Shown: positions 4,576-40,938 of the stretch, piece after piece
Layout of the letters: the number at the start of each line of letters is the position of its first letter
Position numbering within the stretch: position 1 is the first letter of the stretch
From: a virus
Taxonomy: Duplodnaviria > Caudoviricetes
Reading direction: 5' to 3' (one strand)
Virus record (IMG/VR): IMGVR_UViG_3300037847_002819
Span: 31,890-95,889 of that record
DNA length: 64,000 bases
The notes under the pieces: model-generated
What the model was told of the DNA's origin: nothing
Database searches by the model: none
The model's input: only the letters and a program-made list of their open reading frames with translations
Position numbers and translations under genes: made by a program

Positions 4576-4808
4576 GTATATCTCGGATTAGGCGAGGGTT
4601 GTAAAACATATAATAATGCCGGTTTAATGGCGAAATAATTAACCTTCAAATGTTAATATTGGTTAATTAACCGTTAAATACAGGCATTTTAATGTTAATA
4701 TAAAAAATAAAAAATTTGGACAAAGCCATATGGTTGTATAAATAATAATATCAGCCAATTAATGTTAAAAGCATATGGTAGCAACTTTGGTAATGAGGAA
4801 CGAATGGC

Positions 4809-4845
4809 TACCTTATATGAAGTCCGAGGTCGAATAGTAGTGGCT
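4809..4845 (+). promoter_or_regulatory. archaeal TATA promoter and shared leader of paralog 1
   Basis: ACCTTATATG box followed by TCGAATAGTAGTGGCT, which recurs identically at 5595-5610. Confidence 0.65.
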
Positions 4846-4891
4846 TCGGGGATTGAAGCATTAATCTAACACATTTAGGAGTTGATTAAAA

Positions 4892-5380
4892 ATGGAAATA
4901 GAAAAATGGAATGATAAAGTTGCCATGATTATTGCATGGTTAAAGGAAAATGACGCAGGTGCTATGGGACAGGTTATTCAAGTTAATATTGAAGCCGGTA
5001 ATGAAGCACAAACAGATGAAGATAGGAATAGATTTTGGGAGGCAGTTAGAGCCTTGTGTAAAACACTTCCAAATAGCCCTATTAAGAAAGGTCGTGGTTC
5101 AACACTACCTAATGAAGTCCAAGCGGTTTTAGATTCAATATCTGATGAAGTCGCTCAAGCCGCTAGTGATTTTTTTGCTATTGGTGACATGAATATGCTT
5201 CTTTTGAAGCATGGAAAGAGTGGCGGTGGTTTATTCACTGCTGACGAGTATTCTGCATATATGTCACAAACAGTAGTTAATTCTCTCAAGAGGAGATACA
5301 AAGACAAAATTTGGGATGGTAGTCGTCAAGGACTATTAACCCAAGCATTCCCCGTTGAGGAGGTTGACGAGGAAGAATGA
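4892..5380 (+). CDS. hypothetical protein, paralog family P (copy 1)
   Basis: AGGAG RBS; shares DEDRNRFWEAVRALCKTLPNSPIKKGRGSTL with copy 2; acidic tail. Confidence 0.9.
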   Translation: MEIEKWNDKVAMIIAWLKENDAGAMGQVIQVNIEAGNEAQTDEDRNRFWEAVRALCKTLPNSPIKKGRGSTLPNEVQAVLDSISDEVAQAASDFFAIGDMNMLLLKHGKSGGGLFTADEYSAYMSQTVVNSLKRRYKDKIWDGSRQGLLTQAFPVEEVDEEE

Positions 5381-5415
5381 TTGATGCTTTAATCCCCAAG
5401 CCCCAGATTCACCAA

Positions 5416-5503
5416 ATAACCCGCATAGGACTGATAATTCCGATTCTTATATTTATTATCTGTATGATTAATCAGCCTATGCGGGTTATGCCTTATTTTT
5501 TTA
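5416..5503 (+). terminator. stem-loop plus T-tract
   Basis: ATAACCCGCATAGG...CCTATGCGGGTTAT 14-bp inverted repeat followed by a T run. Confidence 0.7.
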
Positions 5504-5659
5504 TTTTAGGGTAGTAAAACCAAAGTGTATTCATTACATGAATATTTATTACCATATGGTTGTATCTTTGAGCAACCCTACATATAGTAGCACATCGAAT
5601 AGTAGTGGCTCAAAGGGATTGAGTCGGTATTGATGGAGTCAATACAGGAGATGAAAAGA

Positions 5660-6190
5660 ATGGAACAAGAAAAGTGGATAACAAAGTCTAACGAAATTAG
5701 AGCATGGCTTGAGCATAATGATGCAGGGGCTATGGGAGCAGTAATAACAGTAAATCTAGATGCTGGCGATTCAGCCGCATCCGATGAAGACAGAAATCGT
5801 TTTTGGGAAGCAGTTCGGGCATTATGCAAGACCCTCCCAAACTCGCCAATAAAGAAAGGTCGTGGCTCAACGCTAGACCCAGCAATTCAAGCCGTTGTGG
5901 ATTCTGTGAGCAATCGCATTCAAAATGCTTTTGTCACAATTTCTGACGCTGAATTGCTACTTGAAGTAATGCTACCACATGGTAAAACAGGTGGCGCATA
6001 CGCTAACATTGAAGCATTGGCTTCTGATATGGCAACAAAGGCTGTAAGAGTCCTAAAGGCGGCATTGAAAGATGGTCGCTGGGATGGAACAATGAGCGAT
6101 AGTGGACTAACAGGCATGACTCCGCCTATGAAGTCTGATTCCTCTAACGAGGAAGCAACGGAAGAATCCCAAGAGGAGGAAACCGTCTGA
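5660..6190 (+). CDS. hypothetical protein, paralog family P (copy 2)
   Basis: Start reassigned to MEQEKW by alignment with MEIEKW of copy 1; AGGAGATGA RBS; promoter CCCTACATATAG at about 5576. Confidence 0.9.
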   Translation: MEQEKWITKSNEIRAWLEHNDAGAMGAVITVNLDAGDSAASDEDRNRFWEAVRALCKTLPNSPIKKGRGSTLDPAIQAVVDSVSNRIQNAFVTISDAELLLEVMLPHGKTGGAYANIEALASDMATKAVRVLKAALKDGRWDGTMSDSGLTGMTPPMKSDSSNEEATEESQEEETV

Positions 6191-6280
6191 TACCGATTCA
6201 ATCCCTTTAAGCCCCATACGATTCCTACGGGCATCCGGTAACACCTGTTAAAATTACAATTGAATCTGAACATAGGTCAA

Positions 6281-6359
6281 TGCGGAAGAGTAGGAAAGGG
6301 GAAACAGTGAGAAAACCAAAGGACACTCACTGTTTCCCCTTCCGCCCACTATTTTTTTT
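6281..6359 (+). terminator. stem-loop plus T-tract
   Basis: GGGGAAACAGTGAG...CTCACTGTTTCCCC inverted repeat then T8. Confidence 0.75.
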
Positions 6360-6578
6360 AATAGGGTTGTGTCAAATACTGCGTATTACCAAAGTATGAC
6401 ACAACCATATGGTAGCGACTTTGTGCTACCTTATCTGTTAAAAAAATAAAGATGGATTTTTATACAGAATCCTAACTGTTGCCGCCATCTCAGGCTCAGG
6501 CTTAGGCGACTATACCACCGTATAGTCTCGTTACATTTTGTCCGGTGGGGAACGCATAAAACCACATTCTTTGGACTA

Positions 6579-6737
6579 TCATACATATCTTCTTTTAGAA
6601 GTCAAGGGTTTATCCGGATTTAAAGCACACCCAATGGCAACTTTATCTTTATTCCGTTCATTCATTTTAGCGACATAACCTGCCCACCAAACTTCTCCAG
6701 CCCTAATTTCTGCTCTCATTTTACTTCTTCTATTCAT
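6579..6737 (-). CDS. 52-aa hypothetical protein (MNRRSKMRAEIRAGEVWWAGY...)
   Basis: Manually found; GGAGATGA RBS; downstream hairpin GACTATAC/GTATAGTC and T-tract. Confidence 0.5.
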   Translation of the reverse strand: MNRRSKMRAEIRAGEVWWAGYVAKMNERNKDKVAIGCALNPDKPLTSKRRYV

Positions 6738-6883
6738 TTAATCATCTCCATAATTATCCGGTTCATTATCCTTAACATAAGTATCATACAACATAACCCA
6801 TTCACAGTCGTTACAACAAATGAAAACACTACCTGCATAACTCTCTTCTAATTCAGTATTTGCACTACCGCAAGCATCACAAG

Positions 6884-7120
6884 TCATTCTTCCTCATCCC
6901 CCATATATTCTAGGTATTCTTCAAACTGCACATATGATACGGTTGCAATCGTTAATGCGTTAATGTTCATTGTATGTGAAGTATTAGGATTCTGATAACC
7001 TTCATTACGCCTCTTCCATACATGAAACATTATTTCTTTATCCTCGAAATAACTAACCACTCGCTTTTCAATCGTATTGTCCGGATGGACTATTGTTCCC
7101 CACTTTACTTTGGTTTCCAT
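6884..7120 (-). CDS. hypothetical protein, probably leaderless
   Basis: ATG 7120 lies about 20 nt downstream of CCTTACATATAG (minus strand 7152-7141); ends GDEEE. Confidence 0.65.
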   Translation of the reverse strand: METKVKWGTIVHPDNTIEKRVVSYFEDKEIMFHVWKRRNEGYQNPNTSHTMNINALTIATVSYVQFEEYLEYMGDEEE

Positions 7121-7212
7121 GTTGTTACAAATTAAACGACTATATGTAAGGTTTGACAAAGTTCAAACCATATGGTTGAGTAATGGTTCTTTTGAATTAA
7201 TGGATAACCATA

Positions 7213-7590
7213 AAAAAAATTTAGGCGAATCCAGCGAGAGAGATAGCCACCGGCTTAGTTTTCGACTCTCTCGCTGAATTCTAAAGGGTGTCAGCCTAGA
7301 AGATACCGTTTCCGGTTCTAGGAAGGTGAGTGGATTATCTTGCACCACTAAGTTTGTAACTCAATTTACTGCTTGTTCAATTGAGGGTCACACAACCTTC
7401 TAATGTATTCATCAATTGGTGATTGATGCCCTTTTGGGGAACATACGCTTCAAGAACCACTACCATACTATCCAATAGGACTTCCGATAATGGGTGAAAC
7501 CCGCACCACACGGTTAAGAAGTGCATTACGCCGCTACTAGCGTTGTTCTGCCACTGACTATCCAGCAAAGGTAGCGAACCCTTGCTGAAC
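7213..7590 (-). ncRNA. candidate large structured non-coding RNA
   Basis: Own TATA-like box and T8 tract; many nested helices; GAAA tetraloop; G-U wobbles fit the minus strand; no credible ORF. Confidence 0.6.
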
Positions 7591-7712
7591 AATACTATAT
7601 TCATCAATACTTTATCTAGGGTTTATTCAAAAGACTCAACCATATGGTAAGATGTGCGAATCTTTTGATGCTTCGCAGATATTACCATAAAAAAAATAGG
7701 TGATGGCCGATT

Positions 7713-8102
7713 TTACTCGGCCACCACCATTAATCCATGACTAGGTAGTGTTTTCAACAATCCCCAAATTGCCTCCAAATATCTAGGGTGTAATTGTTCC
7801 TTCCACAAACTAACAGTAAATTGGACTACATCATACAGATTGCTTTCATACACAATCCGATAATCAATCACATTATCAATTCCTTCGTTTATAACTCTGA
7901 TTTTGAATTTGGTCATAGAATCCTCATTTGTTTGTTCCTCTTCGTATCTGCTTGGAATACCTTGTTCTGCACGATTACATTCACCACAGGTAGCGATGAT
8001 TTCATAATCTGCATATTCATCTTCACAATCACCTAGTCCATAGTGACCTATTGATATTGATTCTCCACAGTTGTTCTTGCATGATATATTTGTCCATGTC
8101 AT
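7713..8102 (-). CDS. hypothetical protein with Cys motifs (CKNNC, CGEC), putative Zn-binding
   Basis: ORF alone in a cassette with CCTTATGATAAAG promoter and T-tract. Confidence 0.7.
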   Translation of the reverse strand: MTWTNISCKNNCGESISIGHYGLGDCEDEYADYEIIATCGECNRAEQGIPSRYEEEQTNEDSMTKFKIRVINEGIDNVIDYRIVYESNLYDVVQFTVSLWKEQLHPRYLEAIWGLLKTLPSHGLMVVAE

Positions 8103-8225
8103 ATTAATATCAATTCAATTACTTTATCATAAGGTAAGTTTCAAAGACTTACCATATGGTTGTAACTTTGAGGATTAGCGTAGCCAACCCTATATGAAAT
8201 AGGGTAATTCATAGTATTGGTTCTT

Positions 8226-8495
8226 ATGGGATTAAGCATAGAAATTGAATTAGAGAACGGGCAGTGGAGTGGGACTCTCACTATGTCTGCTTGTGAAGCC
8301 GCAAAAAACTACCAACCAGAAGTTTTACGATTTTTGGCAAAAGAGTTGAAGAAGAATAGAAGCCTAGTTATCACAACAATGCATATGCGTGATAGCAGAA
8401 TTCGAGTAAACGGAGTTTGGAATTCAGCGCAGTTGAACAGATTCTCCCGTTTCCACGACCAAATGTTTAGAGAATACAACAAAAACGAGTCGTGA
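8226..8495 (+). CDS. hypothetical protein
   Basis: CCCTATATG promoter at about 8188; hairpin terminator follows. Confidence 0.65.
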   Translation: MGLSIEIELENGQWSGTLTMSACEAAKNYQPEVLRFLAKELKKNRSLVITTMHMRDSRIRVNGVWNSAQLNRFSRFHDQMFREYNKNES

Positions 8496-8507
8496 AATTA
8501 AGAATTA

Positions 8508-8567
8508 GGGGTGTCGAATCCGGAGTTAGTTGTTTTATCCGGATTCGGCATCCCGCACCATTTTTTT
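8508..8567 (+). terminator. stem-loop plus T-tract
   Basis: GGGTGTCGAATCCGGA...TCCGGATTCGGCATCCC then T7. Confidence 0.75.
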
Positions 8568-8769
8568 AGGGTTCTCGTTCTTCACTTCGTTACCCCAAAG
8601 TCCCACTATCACCAAGAAAGATACTATTAGAGAGCGATTAGTTGAAGGTGATTTATTGATTCTAAAATATCAACACATTATTTTGGATTGTTTTCAATTG
8701 ACCGTATAAGAAATATGTATAGTCATAAAATACTCATATGATATACCATATAATATATGATGCAAAAAA

Positions 8770-9080
8770 TGTTTCCACTCAATTTTCCAACCGGAATCGG
8801 AAATAAAAATTAAGAAACTTAGGGGTTGTGCAACATAACCCCTAAGAAATTAATATTATTCTATTATTCCATTATTCCATACCATACATACACAATCCTA
8901 CCCCCTCTCTTTGATTTGCCCTCTCTCTCTATGAGATAGTGACCCCCCATTTTGAGTGGAATAATGGAATAATGCCAAACCCTCTAGAAACTCAAGGGTT
9001 GTGCAACATAACCTTGAAGTTTCTAATTCCATTATTTTTCCGAATAATTTTCCGGTGGAATAATGTATTTGAGTGAAAAT
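8770..9080. repeat. repeat/palindrome cluster, candidate replication origin or packaging site
   Basis: Two hairpins sharing the 18-mer GGGTTGTGCAACATAACC (8823, 8996); tandem ATTATTCC and inverted GGAATAAT repeats; no ORF. Confidence 0.55.
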
Positions 9081-9143
9081 TAATTATCGCTTATTAAACA
9101 CTAATTCTGAACAGGTTCGCAAGTAGCCGAAAATACAGATAAT

Positions 9144-9177
9144 TGACTCCCTTTATATGGTGTTAGCATATGGAGAG
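9144..9177 (+). promoter_or_regulatory. promoter class TGACTCCCTTTATA (copy 1)
   Basis: 29/34 nt identical to 15883-15916; contains a TTTATA TATA box. Confidence 0.75.
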
Positions 9178-9212
9178 TCTGCCCCCAAAATGGCGGGGTA
9201 GGATATGATAAT

Positions 9213-9689
9213 ATGGATGATGTAAAGTGGGACAGTATCGTTATTGAAACGAATGAATACCTAGAAACAGATGCGATTGATGGTGCGTTGAAACAAGTGG
9301 TTCAACTACACCTTGAAGTCGGTCAAAATAACCCGAATGAAAGAGATGCTGCGGCAAATGCGCTAAAGGCACTATTGAAAGGCCGTGATGGTTCACCATT
9401 TGGCCGCAAAGGTGCAAAGAGCGCAGTTCCAACAAGTGTTAGAGTAGTAATTGACCGCATTTGCGGTGTCGTTGAAGAAGCGGCAGTTAACTACTACAAC
9501 CATGATGGAATTATGGCGGCTCTTTGTCTTCGTCATGCTAAATCCGGTGGAGGACAATATGAGTCTGCTGAAGATTATGCAAAGGCACAGGCAAAGAAAG
9601 CACGAACCCAACTAAGTAAGATGTTCAAAGAACAAACTTGGGATGGGAGCGTTGAGTCGCTTTTGTCAAGTGAATCTTCTGAAGAATGA
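9213..9689 (+). CDS. hypothetical protein, paralog family P (copy 3, divergent)
   Basis: Shares KW, GA.KQV.Q, A..ALL, SP..KG, H.KSGGG.Y and WDGS motifs with copies 1 and 2. Confidence 0.85.
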   Translation: MDDVKWDSIVIETNEYLETDAIDGALKQVVQLHLEVGQNNPNERDAAANALKALLKGRDGSPFGRKGAKSAVPTSVRVVIDRICGVVEEAAVNYYNHDGIMAALCLRHAKSGGGQYESAEDYAKAQAKKARTQLSKMFKEQTWDGSVESLLSSESSEE

Positions 9690-10010: not shown

Positions 10011-10172
10011 GGGCTATTGGCGCAGTCAGGTAGCGCAACGGGCTTTTAATGAGGTTTTATCGAAGTAATAAATGAGGACTTGCTCAATTTTCGATTATGT
10101 GTTATACTTTCTCATAACTCATTTTCCTCAAAAGATACCCGTTGGTCGTGGGTTCGAACCCCACATAGCCCG
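10011..10172 (+). tRNA. tRNA-Lys(UUU) with an 88-nt intron at position 37/38 (10049-10136)
   Basis: Acceptor GGGCTAT/ATAGCCC; D-arm GCGC/GCGC; anticodon stem ACGGG/CCCGT; T-arm GTGGG-TTCGAAC-CCCAC; BHB formed by CTTT/AAAG helix with TAA and ATA bulges. Confidence 0.93.
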
Positions 10173-36385: not shown

Positions 36386-38041
36386 ATGATAATTAGTAGG
36401 TGTTTAGATGGAAAACACATATACAAATCTTGGAGAGAGAATAACGAGAAAAAATTCGAATTGGAAAGATTTAGACCCTACTTTTATGTGAAGGAAAACG
36501 AAAAGGAACATACAACATATTCTCCTTCTAAGTATATCAAACGAGAGTTTGAATATGAAAGAGGAGAATGGGTGAATCTAGATGGTGATAGATTAAAGAG
36601 AGTATATGTTGAAAACTCTTTTGATGTTTTTTCTGCTAGAAAAATGTTTAAGCAAACATATGAAGCAGATGTTCCATATACATTTAGATATGCAGTTGAT
36701 TGTATTTCGGAAATGCCGGAGTATAAAATGCGTAAATGGTATTGGGATATGGAATGGCAACAAGGAGGAGAACATCATAATAAAATTACTACTATTGTAA
36801 TGTATGATAATTATGATAAGGACTATCATCATTGGGTTTGGTTTCCTAATAAATACAAACATGAAATTGAAAAAGCAAAGCCAAAATATGTTTTTGGTTC
36901 TGAAAAAGAAATGCTTGAACATTTCATTAACACAATGATAGATAAAGACCCCGATATGTTAATTGCGTGGTTCGGTAACTTCGCTGATATACCTAAATTA
37001 CTTGAAAGGTGTTGTGCTTTAGGAATTAACCCTAATAGAATGTCTCCGATTAACCGGATAGATGGTGTTAAACAGACTAAGAACGGCTTCAAATATACTA
37101 AAGGTGAAAAGGGGTTCTCGCCAATAGAACAACCCATAGGGGGTCGCATAACCCTCTCATTAGACATGGCTTTTGAAAGACAATGGAATGACTCGCAAAG
37201 AGGAACATTACCTTCTCTATCTTTGGACTATGTATCTGAATCTTTACTTAACAAGAAGAAGTTAGTTTCAGAAAAGTTTCCCGACCCAAACGAATTCTAT
37301 CGTAGGGCTTGGTTAGAAGATACTGAAACTTATTTGCAGTATGCTCTAAAAGATGTTGAATTGATTGTTGAAATAGATGAAACTAATTATTGTAGCGAAG
37401 CGATTATTGCACTACAAAGATTACTGAAAGCACCATTTGATGCTTGTTTTTATGCAAGCCATATGGGTTCTATTTACTTCATGCGTAATGCTTGGTGGAA
37501 AGCACCAACAGGTAATAAGAAAGCAGAAAAGAAGTCTTATCAAGGGGCTATGATTTATGACCCGTTGAGTGAAAACACTAACGGATTACATCTTAATGTG
37601 GCGGCTTTTGATTATGCAGGTCTATACCCTGCTATGATGATTTCAAGAAACATTTCGTTTGAAACTAAAAGCGAAGAACCTACCGAGTTTGGTGTGAACA
37701 TATTGACTCCTAGAGATTTTAGCGAGGTAACAGAAACAAAGATGCTATACTACAAAACCGATAAACTAGGATTGTTGCCTAAGTCTGTATTAGAACTCAA
37801 AGAGTTGCGAAATGAATATAAGCGACTTATGCGTGAGGCGAGAGAGAACAATAATAACAGTGACTATATCAAGTGGTATAACAATCAAATGGCGGTAAAG
37901 AGACTAATGGCTTCATTTTACGGAATCATTGGCTATACCGGTTTTAGTTGGGCTGATGCTGATTTAGCGGCTAGTATTACTGCTAGTGCTAGAGAAGCAA
38001 TTAGATTGGCGGCTTTTAAGGCAAAGGAGATGAATGTATGA
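36386..38041 (+). CDS. polB: family B DNA polymerase, N-terminal part (exonuclease, motifs A and B)
   Basis: PYFY, YEADVPY..RY, WDME (ExoI), SLDYVS, Y...DV (ExoIII), FDYAGLYP, Q.AVK.LM.SFYG. Confidence 0.93.
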   Translation: MIISRCLDGKHIYKSWRENNEKKFELERFRPYFYVKENEKEHTTYSPSKYIKREFEYERGEWVNLDGDRLKRVYVENSFDVFSARKMFKQTYEADVPYTFRYAVDCISEMPEYKMRKWYWDMEWQQGGEHHNKITTIVMYDNYDKDYHHWVWFPNKYKHEIEKAKPKYVFGSEKEMLEHFINTMIDKDPDMLIAWFGNFADIPKLLERCCALGINPNRMSPINRIDGVKQTKNGFKYTKGEKGFSPIEQPIGGRITLSLDMAFERQWNDSQRGTLPSLSLDYVSESLLNKKKLVSEKFPDPNEFYRRAWLEDTETYLQYALKDVELIVEIDETNYCSEAIIALQRLLKAPFDACFYASHMGSIYFMRNAWWKAPTGNKKAEKKSYQGAMIYDPLSENTNGLHLNVAAFDYAGLYPAMMISRNISFETKSEEPTEFGVNILTPRDFSEVTETKMLYYKTDKLGLLPKSVLELKELRNEYKRLMREARENNNNSDYIKWYNNQMAVKRLMASFYGIIGYTGFSWADADLAASITASAREAIRLAAFKAKEMNV

Positions 38042-38872: not shown

Positions 38873-39153
38873 ATAGATATGAATTGGATAAATTAAATGA
38901 AGAAATTAAAAGACTTACTATGGAAAATGAAGGTCTTGCTAATAGAATAGATGAATTGGATGAGAAGATTGAAAAACTGCAAAATACAATTGAAAGATTG
39001 GAAATAGAGTTGGATAGGCAATATAATGAGGATTCGCAAACATACAATGTAGCAAAAGCGATTCACGAAATGCAAAACGACCTACAAAAGTTGCATCCTG
39101 AATTAACATTCAACAATCTAATATATGCACCCGATAAGGTGGGCGGAGTATGA
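38869..39153 (+). CDS. coiled-coil protein
   Basis: Heptad pattern; GGTGA RBS. Confidence 0.7.
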   Translation: MNRYELDKLNEEIKRLTMENEGLANRIDELDEKIEKLQNTIERLEIELDRQYNEDSQTYNVAKAIHEMQNDLQKLHPELTFNNLIYAPDKVGGV

Positions 39154-40031
39154 AAGTAGTTTATGGGCATACAGATTCAATCTATGTTCAGATTGATTCA
39201 GTTGAAAAGGCTCAAACTGCTATCAAAGAAATAGAAGCAAGTGTTAGAGAACATTTTCCTAATGTATTAGGTTTAGATGAACACCCTGTTCAGTTAGAGT
39301 TTGAAAAGTATTTTTCTGCTTTAGGCGTAGGAACGGTAAAGAATCGTAATGCAGGGTTAGTATCTTGGGAAGATGGAGTATGGTTGGATGAACCAAAATT
39401 CACCATGACAGGTTTTACTGCTAAAAGAGTTAGTGAAACTAAAATGGCAAAGGAGGTTCAAACTACTGTGCTAAAAATGTGGGTGAATCAGAATACTCAA
39501 GACGAAATAAATAAGTATTTACACAATACTTATTCTTCTGTTCTGAATGGCAAAATACCTATTAATTCTATTATTAAAAGGTCTAGACTAAAGAGCAATA
39601 GGCTTACTGTAAAATGTCCGGATTGTGGAACTAAGCATAGCATAAAAGAACACATTAAATGGTGTAAAAAATGCGGTGTGGAAGGTAAATTATTCAGAAC
39701 ATTAGACAATGCAAAACCCTCTTTTGGTGAGGGTATTTCCGGAATATTATATGCTTGGCAAAATACAGATGCCGAGTTTGATGATTCATATTTATTTATG
39801 AAAGTAAGGAATTTGCATAAGACATATACTCATCCTTTAACGGGAGAGAAGCGAAAAGCCGAATATATTTCCGGCACAACCTATGCAGACTTTGAGAGTT
39901 ATGAACCGGATTGGCGACACTACGCTGAACAGGTGATAAAGAAGGCCGAGCCTATTTACAAGGCGATGGATTGGGATTTGTCAAGCATTAGAACAGGTAA
40001 AATACAAAAGAAATTAGATGATTGGTGGTAA
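39150..40031 (+). CDS. polB: family B DNA polymerase, C-terminal part (motif C, thumb, Zn ribbon, PIP box)
   Basis: VVYGHTDSIYV, LEFEK, K.R.AG, CPDC...CKKC, QKKLDDWW. Confidence 0.92.
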   Translation: MKVVYGHTDSIYVQIDSVEKAQTAIKEIEASVREHFPNVLGLDEHPVQLEFEKYFSALGVGTVKNRNAGLVSWEDGVWLDEPKFTMTGFTAKRVSETKMAKEVQTTVLKMWVNQNTQDEINKYLHNTYSSVLNGKIPINSIIKRSRLKSNRLTVKCPDCGTKHSIKEHIKWCKKCGVEGKLFRTLDNAKPSFGEGISGILYAWQNTDAEFDDSYLFMKVRNLHKTYTHPLTGEKRKAEYISGTTYADFESYEPDWRHYAEQVIKKAEPIYKAMDWDLSSIRTGKIQKKLDDWW

Positions 40032-40032
40032 T

Positions 40033-40938
40033 ATGAATAACGATGAAAAATATAATGCGGTAATTTCTGCTATGCCGGAATTTACTTATGATTGGAAGCA
40101 TGAAAATTATGATGACCCTAGCAAACCTATATTGAAAATAACTAAATCTTCTTTAGGTTCTTTCGATTGGTGCGCTAAAAAGTATGATTTTTCCTACATT
40201 CAGCGTTTGCCTCAAGACCAAACGGAGGCTATGTTGAAAGGAACAATTTGCCATACTTCAAGAGAGAATTTTTTCAATGACTTTGATGTTAAGAAAGCAG
40301 AATCAATGACTGCTAATGAGTTGTATGAGTATTGTCAAAGCCTTCATCCTATTGATGATTATTTGGATATTTCAATTACTCAATCAGCGTTTGAAGCCGA
40401 GAGGTTCATTGAAGCGAGGGATGCAAATAAGATTGATGAATATTTGCCTGTTTGTAACGAAGGAAAATTCGATGCAAATATAACAATTGATAAAGATACA
40501 AACCCTAAGTTTCCTCTAAAGAGAGACTACAAAATACATATTCAAGGTATTATTGATAGAATCTTTGAAGAAGATGGAGGGTATATTCCTTTTGAGTATA
40601 AAACAGGTGCTTGGAAAGATTACAAAGCAACAAGTATGAGAAAGGAAATGGCTTTCTATCAATTACTTATTGAAAATGCTGAAGATGAAGTATTGATTAA
40701 AAATGGATTAGACCCTAATAAGAAAGTAACTCATTGGGGTTGGTATTATCCGGTTTCTAATTATGTATTTTCAGAAGGTGTAAAGAAAAGAACAATGACT
40801 TCTGTAATGAATAATATTGCTAAGTTGATTTGGTCTTATGAAAACTCGCATTTCCCTGCAAAGTTTTTCTATAAGACTTGTTCGCATTGTTCTTTCTTTG
40901 GTATCTGTGATGCGGCACAAACCGATACATGGGTGTGA
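40033..40938 (+). CDS. Cas4/AddB-like PD-(D/E)XK nuclease with Fe-S cysteines
   Basis: SS...FDWC, GT..H, GIIDRI, EYKTG, CSHCSFFGIC. Confidence 0.85.
   Translation: MNNDEKYNAVISAMPEFTYDWKHENYDDPSKPILKITKSSLGSFDWCAKKYDFSYIQRLPQDQTEAMLKGTICHTSRENFFNDFDVKKAESMTANELYEYCQSLHPIDDYLDISITQSAFEAERFIEARDANKIDEYLPVCNEGKFDANITIDKDTNPKFPLKRDYKIHIQGIIDRIFEEDGGYIPFEYKTGAWKDYKATSMRKEMAFYQLLIENAEDEVLIKNGLDPNKKVTHWGWYYPVSNYVFSEGVKKRTMTSVMNNIAKLIWSYENSHFPAKFFYKTCSHCSFFGICDAAQTDTWV

Follow-up and report, generated by a model that had tools for sequence, protein, structure and literature searches.

A probable stand-alone structured RNA gene in a magrovirus-like genome and its likely kinship with the manA RNAs

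We describe a structured RNA encoded on the minus strand at positions 7213-7620 of a 64,000-base stretch of viral DNA (the window throughout; bases 31890-95889 of the 95,889-base IMG/VR record IMGVR_UViG_3300037847_002819, which CheckV rates as complete). Its 308-nucleotide (nt) core consists of a closing helix around several junctions, and homologs keep this fold via compensatory changes. The locus is almost certainly a stand-alone RNA gene, and the RNA is very probably related to manA (Rfam RF01745): judged by sequence and fold, it appears to be an enlarged, free-standing manA variant, without being a member by the Rfam criterion. We file it as such on an element-by-element match and on models that find each other's RNAs, set against a score below the Rfam gathering threshold and several differences in architecture. 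A sequence-only reading of the window had proposed a novel structured RNA occupying its own cassette here; the RNA and its separate transcription unit are borne out, whereas its status as a new class and part of the proposed fold are not.

The 408-nt region has a minimum free energy of -132.9 kcal/mol (z = -5.3), and none of 100 shuffled versions folds as well; in a two-sequence consensus fold 18 of 52 pairs are changed on both sides. In an alignment of 23 sequences (A4; 20 distinct, 325 columns), 86.1% of the paired cells hold a pair, as against 67.9% after shuffling (none of 500 shuffles reaches the real value) and 37-45% with slid partners; both sides vary in 50 of the 78 pairs, with a covariation score of 0.516 versus 0.21 in shuffled alignments. 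A second alignment of seven group-I sequences (A6), whose structure was written for the window, is 90.0% paired, versus 79.6% shuffled and 33-43% with slid partners. The gathered homologs carry a strong covariation signal. The parts of the transcription unit are:

7608..7650, minus: putative promoter element, with palindromic core CCATATGG (7647-7640), CTTTTG and a TATA-like TAGATAAA (7618-7611)
7590, minus: likely transcription start, the G of aTTGttCAGC, where three contigs end
7283..7590, minus: conserved core of 308 nt, running from the start through the tail ACCCUUU, with covariation in A4 and A6
7563..7587, minus: P1, the 5' hairpin, CAGCAAGGG (7587-7579) with CCUUUGCUG (7571-7563)
7558-7554 / 7294-7290, minus: P2, the closing helix GUCAG/CUGAC
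7523..7551, minus: P3, a hairpin of GCA/UGC (7551-7549 / 7525-7523) and ACGCU/GGCGU (7543-7539 / 7532-7528)
7517..7521 / 7401-7397, minus: P4, the junction helix CUUCU/AGAAG, with double changes at 5/5 pairs in group I
7501..7513, minus: P5, a CCG/CGG hairpin with the loop UGUGGUG (7510-7504)
7457..7493, minus: P6, a long three-tier hairpin (CCA/UGG, UAUCG/UGGUA, GUCC/GGAU), 96% paired with double changes
7405..7446, minus: sub-junction, GUAU/AUAC (7446-7443 / 7408-7405) around two hairpins, 100% paired
7439-7429, minus: hairpin CCC-CAAAA-GGG inside the sub-junction, with CYCAAAAGG conserved
7428-7422 / 7416-7410, minus: hairpin CAUCAAU/AUUGAUG, carrying the D loop, CACCA (7421-7417)
7326..7391, minus: three-way junction closed by GUG/CAC (7391-7389 / 7328-7326)
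7385-7379 / 7366-7360, minus: hairpin CUCAAUU/AAUUGAG in the three-way junction
7349-7345 / 7333-7329, minus: hairpin AGUGG/CCACU in the three-way junction, loop UGCAAGAUAAU
7296..7321, minus: hairpin CUAGAA/UUCUAG with inner CCG-GAAA-CGG (7315-7306), a GNRA-type loop
7283..7294, minus: 3' strand of P2, CUGAC (7294-7290), and the tail ACCCUUU
7212..7281, minus: 3' hairpin with a 16-base-pair (bp) stem (7281-7266 / 7242-7227), followed by T8 (7219-7212), a predicted terminator

Almost everything that the sequence-only reading had marked was located on the minus strand: the TATA-like CCCTAGATAAAG (7620-7609), the 5' hairpin CAGCAAGGG/CCTTTGCTG (7587-7579 / 7571-7563), the long-range helix in the form GTCAG/CTGAC, the CATCAAT/ATTGATG, CTCAATT/AATTGAG, AGTGG/CCACT and CTAGAA/TTCTAG pairings (the last with its CCG-GAAA-CGG), the 16-bp stem and the T8 run; the G+C fraction is likewise above the surroundings, at 0.44 versus 0.36-0.41 in neighbouring 1-kb segments. 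Comparison with relatives then separates the helices. The 5' hairpin, the closing helix and the CATCAAT, AGTGG and CTAGAA helices are kept via double changes, whereas four others of those proposed lack support from relatives. AGAAC/GTTCT, GCAC/GTGC and GGGT/ACCC are not kept by relatives, and GAAGGT/ACCTTC is excluded by the P4 helix CUUCU/AGAAG, all five pairs of which covary. P2 is paired in 98% of its cells, with 4/5 pairs changed on both sides among the 20 distinct sequences, and the hairpin at the CUAGAA position is present in all subgroups (93% paired, 5/5 pairs changed on both sides). Every subgroup also has a hairpin at the P1 position, with differing sequences; only the closest relatives of the window share its CUCAAUU hairpin and GAAA-capped inner stem.

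Conservation extends to unpaired positions. P3 contains conserved unpaired GAAC and GUAA in a layout like the UGAAU...UAAG of manA: the window reads GCAGAACA...GUAAUGC, GAA and GTAA vary little or not at all in A4 and in the 5'-module alignment A5, and Rfam and our own 5'-module model R2 (both below) put them at the same model positions. GAAY is a conserved unpaired motif of the family. The UGUGGUG loop of P5 is identical in 19 of 20 distinct sequences, the exception being AGUAGUU in L019 (L-numbers denote individual loci); all distinct members examined have ACC or ACU in the D loop; and the tail CAC(C/U) is conserved, the manA consensus likewise having the closing strand followed by aCcuu.

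The family comprises at least 36 loci, gathered with covariance models and a three-block DNA pattern. Helicase-based loci led to 12 close virus relatives, and nhmmer yielded one RNA homolog, L009 (E 8e-22); within the stretches examined, the RNA is present in six of the 12 relatives (L009, L013, L014, L015, L017, L019). Whole-record searches of five other close relatives, one of them a complete record with terminal repeats, found the RNA absent, so that it is accessory and dispensable. Scans with the pattern gave true members in 6 of 11 viral stretches, in at least 27 (by nhmmer) of at least 117 metagenome stretches, and in one of 59 stretches from the genome collection (L206). The two-sequence, 246-position model R1 confirmed only L031 among eight viral-scan loci, L030 and L038 being recognised by eye and then confirmed by R2 in the same records; with default filters R1 missed L014, L015, L030 and L038. 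Candidates L003-L007, from an exact 17-mer search of viral contigs, were chance matches by alignment. L206 lies on a 14,756-base contig in a metagenome-assembled genome (MAG) labelled 'Altibacter sp.' and is flanked by the same genes as the virus loci; it is probably a viral contig misbinned into a flavobacterial MAG.

These homologs also bear on whether the locus might instead hold small protein genes. Two open reading frames (ORFs) do exist in the window, one of 76 amino acids (aa) with a TTG start (7607-7377) and one of 61 aa with a GTG start (7348-7163). Homologs preserve neither of them: in all 36, each sense frame is interrupted by 1-10 stops and none is open through the core, an antisense frame is open through the core in only one of the 36, L009 has no sense ORF of at least 50 aa, and the substitutions track base pairs. 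A coding function can be set aside with near certainty.

The kinship with manA emerges from comparisons in both directions. At lax thresholds the entire RF01745 model aligns to 7587-7323 with 28.3 bits (E = 4e-5 in a 1.2-kb search and 8e-7 in a genome-wide search with this single family), the gathering score being 55.2. The same model falls on the RNA locus in three of four related records, with 24.4, 15.8 and 14.5 bits; for true manA RNAs of cyanophages the Rfam scores are 169-184 bits. For the reverse comparison, R2, an 82-position model of the family 5' module only, was built on A5 (23 sequences; 90.1% paired versus 78.6% shuffled). Against seven cyanophage loci it recovered manA as the top match, in register, in all seven, at 11.8-21.6 bits, all other matches being at or below 5.9. 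The manA of P-SSM2 scored 21.6 bits, again in register (next-best match 4.4), and was the single match in the 252-kb P-SSM2 genome; no match was found in Syn9, a phage without manA.

The elements shared with manA occur in the same order. Both RNAs begin with the P1 hairpin, followed by a 5-bp closing helix and UG; then come the P3 hairpin, its internal loops being GAAU and UAAR, and the junction helix. The first branch of the junction is a 3-bp hairpin with a GUGGUG loop (manA L5), and the last branch is a hairpin with a (U)AACCA-type loop (manA L7). The D loops of the family include UUACCAA, UAACC, UAACU and ACCG, and that of P-SSM2 manA is UUACCA. Both close with a tail ACC(C/U)UU after the closing helix, and both are found in marine viruses. 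The differences lie further along the molecule: the core measures 268-309 nt rather than about 190 nt; a long three-tier hairpin is present; the CYCAAAAGG and UAACCA-type hairpins are both enclosed by an extra helix; where manA has two adjacent 3' hairpins, there is a closed three-way junction; and an additional hairpin precedes the closing strand, with a 5-bp hairpin bearing a long loop ending in AAU as the sole 3' resemblance to the last hairpin of manA. The carriers differ too: T4-like cyanophages and a gamma-proteobacterium for manA, a magrovirus-like genome with a probable archaeal host here.

One could account for this by a new RNA class that resembles manA through convergence or by chance. 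Such a class would explain why all Rfam scores stay below the gathering score, why R1 misses manA, and why the core exceeds that of manA by some 100 nt and differs from it in the 3' half. It would leave unexplained the reciprocal detection in register (7/7 with R2, and RF01745 at the RNA locus in four of six tested members) and the common order of closing strand, UG, stem, GAAU...UAAR, stem, GUGGUG loop, UAACCA-type loop and tail ACC. These same matches, the sub-threshold but full-length Rfam match and the recovery of true manA by the 5'-module model, speak against the 'novel' class of the sequence-only reading; we reject a class independent of manA as very unlikely. As an aside on the cyanophage loci, small coding sequences (CDSs) for 'hypothetical proteins' are annotated over bona fide manA in S-SSM5 (L226), P-SSM4 (L227) and P-HM2 (L225), and are likely mis-annotations.

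Returning to the window, the RNA has the marks of its own transcription unit. Upstream lies an element, putatively a promoter, in which the centre of TAGATAAA is about 25 nt upstream of the observed 5' end at 7590; some 25 nt is the usual archaeal distance from TATA box to start. Among the homologs, 34 loci have 120 nt of sequence upstream, and all 34 carry the core motif CCATATGG, or a form one base shorter, at a distance of 55-69 nt before the RNA core. A further copy of the element follows the core by 4-404 nt in all 31 loci with sufficient downstream flank, so that the RNA is alone between two such elements. In the window the palindromic element (…CAAAG…ACCATATGGT…CTTTG…ACCCTAnATA…) has at least six copies in 4700-8200. 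Its layout there, and also at 6500-6560 of L019, is TATAGGGT..CAAAG..ACCATATGGT..CTTTG..ACCCTATA; copies delimit the RNA and every short gene. The element resembles a bidirectional promoter, with CCATATGG as an operator-like centre. At the other end, the 3' hairpin and T8 are probably a terminator and an end-protecting stem. The 16-bp stem is kept in L069 by one-sided changes, with a different loop, and the 3' extensions after the core vary in length and sequence between homologs. A purine-rich GA.ACAAAG.CGAAAC motif occurs 40-100 nt after the core in several members (L094, L109, L031, L019), and a similar GAGAGUCGAAAAC sits atop the 3' hairpin of the window (7266-7243); the shared motif is possibly a conserved 3' domain.

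In marine RNA libraries, coverage of the RNA far exceeds that of the flanking genes. Part of the stretch appears in 19 RNA-labelled marine runs, and the contigs of four were compared over 5500-9500. Three runs of one study (X1, X2, X3) contain contigs matching 7272-7590, 7268-7590 and 7286-7590 (321, 323 and 305 nt) with 0 mismatches, at depths of 20, 18 and 46, versus 2.4-3.4 for short contigs on flanking genes; a run from a second study has a relative at 7289-7540 with five differences and two gaps. All three perfect contigs end exactly at 7590, with no loose ends, which together with the archaeal TATA-to-start spacing gives a weak hint that the transcript starts at or near this position. 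Their other ends (7268-7286) fall within the 5' arm of the 3' hairpin or at its base, before T8, which could reflect RNA processing or an effect of the library or the assembly. A discrete transcript of 7590-7213, as proposed earlier, is matched in that the contigs cover just this stretch and end at the predicted 7590; the contigs carry no strand and their other ends fall short.

manA itself was proposed as a candidate cis-regulatory riboswitch in 5' untranslated regions (UTRs) (Weinberg et al. 2010, PMC2864571), and a later phage paper describes its role as still to be verified (PMC9964418). A corresponding reading of the present RNA would make it a cis-acting leader, in which a ligand decides between stopping at the hairpin-T8 and reading through into the 78-aa gene at 7120-6884. 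As in riboswitch leaders with intrinsic terminators, a complex fold is followed directly by a stem and U-run; terminated leaders can be abundant in RNA data, and P-SSM2 manA ends 16 nt before a CDS. Unlike such leaders, and unlike a manA placed in a 5' UTR, the RNA has its own promoter and terminator: the hairpin, T8 and a full promoter element lie between it and the next gene, here and at 31/31 loci with enough flank. The first downstream genes differ among subgroups and are not conserved, the 3' extensions vary, and no contig among those compared from the RNA runs joins the RNA to a downstream gene. Even for manA, the next same-strand CDS is 135 nt away in P-RSM4 and about 390 nt away in P-TIM68. 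We regard a cis-acting leader as improbable.

The reading that we favour is that of a trans-acting, manA-class RNA that self-associates; taken as one statement, this is moderately probable. The transcript would act in trans as RNA itself, not as a switch for a neighbouring gene. Cryo-electron microscopy of manA is reported to show octamers, decamers and a 60-mer icosahedral shell built from pentamers, the pentamers being held by an L5-L7' kissing loop and variant-specific interfaces, with a conserved core and differing peripheral helices (preprint 10.64898/2026.07.01.735769, July 2026). We take L5 to be the GUGGUG loop and L7 the UUACCA loop of manA. Self-association of the present RNA is proposed by analogy with these oligomers and from the retention of both loops. 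The UGUGGUG loop (7510-7504) of one molecule would kiss the CACCA loop (7421-7417) of another, and the extra domains (P6, the three-way junction and the GAAA-capped hairpin) would set the geometry of assembly. Between the window loops five Watson-Crick pairs are possible (UGGUG/CACCA); GGU with ACC or ACU is kept in all 20 distinct family combinations, and L019 changes both loops, to AGUAGUU with AACU, which allows four Watson-Crick pairs. The loop pattern is compatible with a retained kissing contact, while statistically weak. The self-assembly step itself is a tentative prediction, and we hold it with less assurance than the rest. Two other contacts were considered and set aside. A pseudoknot of the GUGGUG loop with the tail ACC is compatible with the alignment (GC 16, GU 3, AU 1) but near-invariant, and the D loop is preferred as partner; for the P3 loop kissing loops F or G, no consistent register was seen by eye.

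A trans-acting RNA might equally remain monomeric and bind a protein or a small molecule, as the partner in a ribonucleoprotein or as a sponge. Many conserved unpaired nucleotides (the GAAY, GUAA, CYCAAAAGG and AAUC loops) would suit such a binder, as would its abundance, and a candidate partner is at hand in a paralog family of about 170 aa, members of which lie no more than 1.5 kb from the RNA, and frequently on either flank of it, at 29 of the 36 loci. However, this neighbour protein belongs to no recognisable RNA-binding family, its linkage may reflect a common hypervariable early region, and the loops of manA oligomerisation are the most conserved loops here. We consider a monomeric binder rather unlikely, if less so than the cis-acting leader. 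The window has three of these paralogs, of about 160-180 aa with acidic tails and no family match, at 4892-5380, 5660-6190 and 9213-9689 (+).

Several points weigh against a self-associating manA-class RNA. On the side of kinship, the window reaches half the Rfam gathering score, RF01745 has no match at E <= 10 in two of the six members tested (L009 and the record of L017), the full-length, two-sequence model R1 did not recover P-SSM2 manA with filters off, and the middle and 3' architecture is unlike manA. On the side of function, three-base complementarity is often expected by chance and the loop covariation comes from one lineage; the cage report is an unreviewed preprint on RNA in vitro at high RNA and Mg concentrations (10.64898/2026.07.01.735769); and the five related virus records that lack the RNA mark it as dispensable. 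The expression data are assembled, strandless contigs whose shared exact end comes from one study only and which stop 50-70 nt before T8, and the archaeal host is inferred rather than shown.

RNAs with a comparable way of life are ROOL and GOLLD, which occur in phages and prophages; neither matched in Rfam scans of the window. Like them, the present RNA is a free-standing, elaborate non-coding RNA whose function is without assignment. ROOL and GOLLD are larger, and their RNA-only homo-oligomers are reported (Kretsch et al. 2025, PMC12286853), whereas oligomers are only predicted for the RNA described here.

manA was put forward as a riboswitch candidate in 2010 and has stayed an orphan; RNA-only cages formed in vitro were reported for it in 2026. 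An enlarged, free-standing and strongly expressed relative in viruses of hosts from another domain argues that the manA class works as RNA itself. The comparison separates a core (the 5' module, the two kissing loops and the tail) from peripheral parts, and makes natural variants available for asking how peripheral helices set assembly geometry. A structured RNA gene would also be added to magroviruses: we found no literature linking manA to magroviruses or archaeal viruses (supplements, which lay outside the search, may bear on this), and the accessible portions of the magrovirus literature, Philosof et al. 2017 (PMC5434244) among them, make no mention of one that we could find. A far-reaching and doubtful extension would be that archaeal and cyanobacterial viruses share one self-assembling RNA class; that the RNA, made early and in bulk, builds pentamer-based shells in Marine Group II cells; that this virus-made compartment or sponge sequesters a host factor or small molecule; and that manA was never primarily a riboswitch.

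As for the carrier, group B/B1 magroviruses are described as encoding GroEL, ribonucleotide reductase (RNR), an ATP-dependent ligase, a split family-B DNA polymerase (PolB) and tRNA genes in a genome of about 90-100 kb, and Philosof et al. infer Marine Group II archaea as their host (2017, PMC5434244). The carrier record has this gene set in a genome of about 95 kb: a helicase and an RNR, a GroEL-type chaperonin (match of 451.7 bits), an ATP-dependent ligase and PolB as two genes, 36386-38041 and 39150-40031 (+), about 1.1 kb apart. It further encodes a tail tube protein and a 2340-aa ORF which we take, on size alone, for the tape measure. This gene set, set beside the published description rather than named magrovirus sequences, points to a magrovirus-like, group B1-like virus, probably with Marine Group II archaea as host. 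The helicase is only about 34% identical to bacterial-phage helicases, which is uninformative on the host, and a chaperonin query found no relative in the genome collection. Searches around the RNA were likewise negative: blastn of the RNA region against the phage collection gave no match, the 129-aa protein upstream has no relatives among the viral contigs, and the flanking proteins returned nothing usable from Pfam, PHROGs or the protein Atlas.

At Rfam gathering scores the only match in the window is a tRNA at 10011-10172 (+), 162 nt long, with 53.6 bits; ARAGORN calls no tRNA in the window, this match included. By eye its anticodon loop reads CUUUUAA (Lys, UUU). The insert of about 90 nt that comes after this loop looks like an archaeal-type tRNA intron and is too short for a group I intron. 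Beside the split PolB, a Cas4-like nuclease domain is encoded at 40018-40938 (+).

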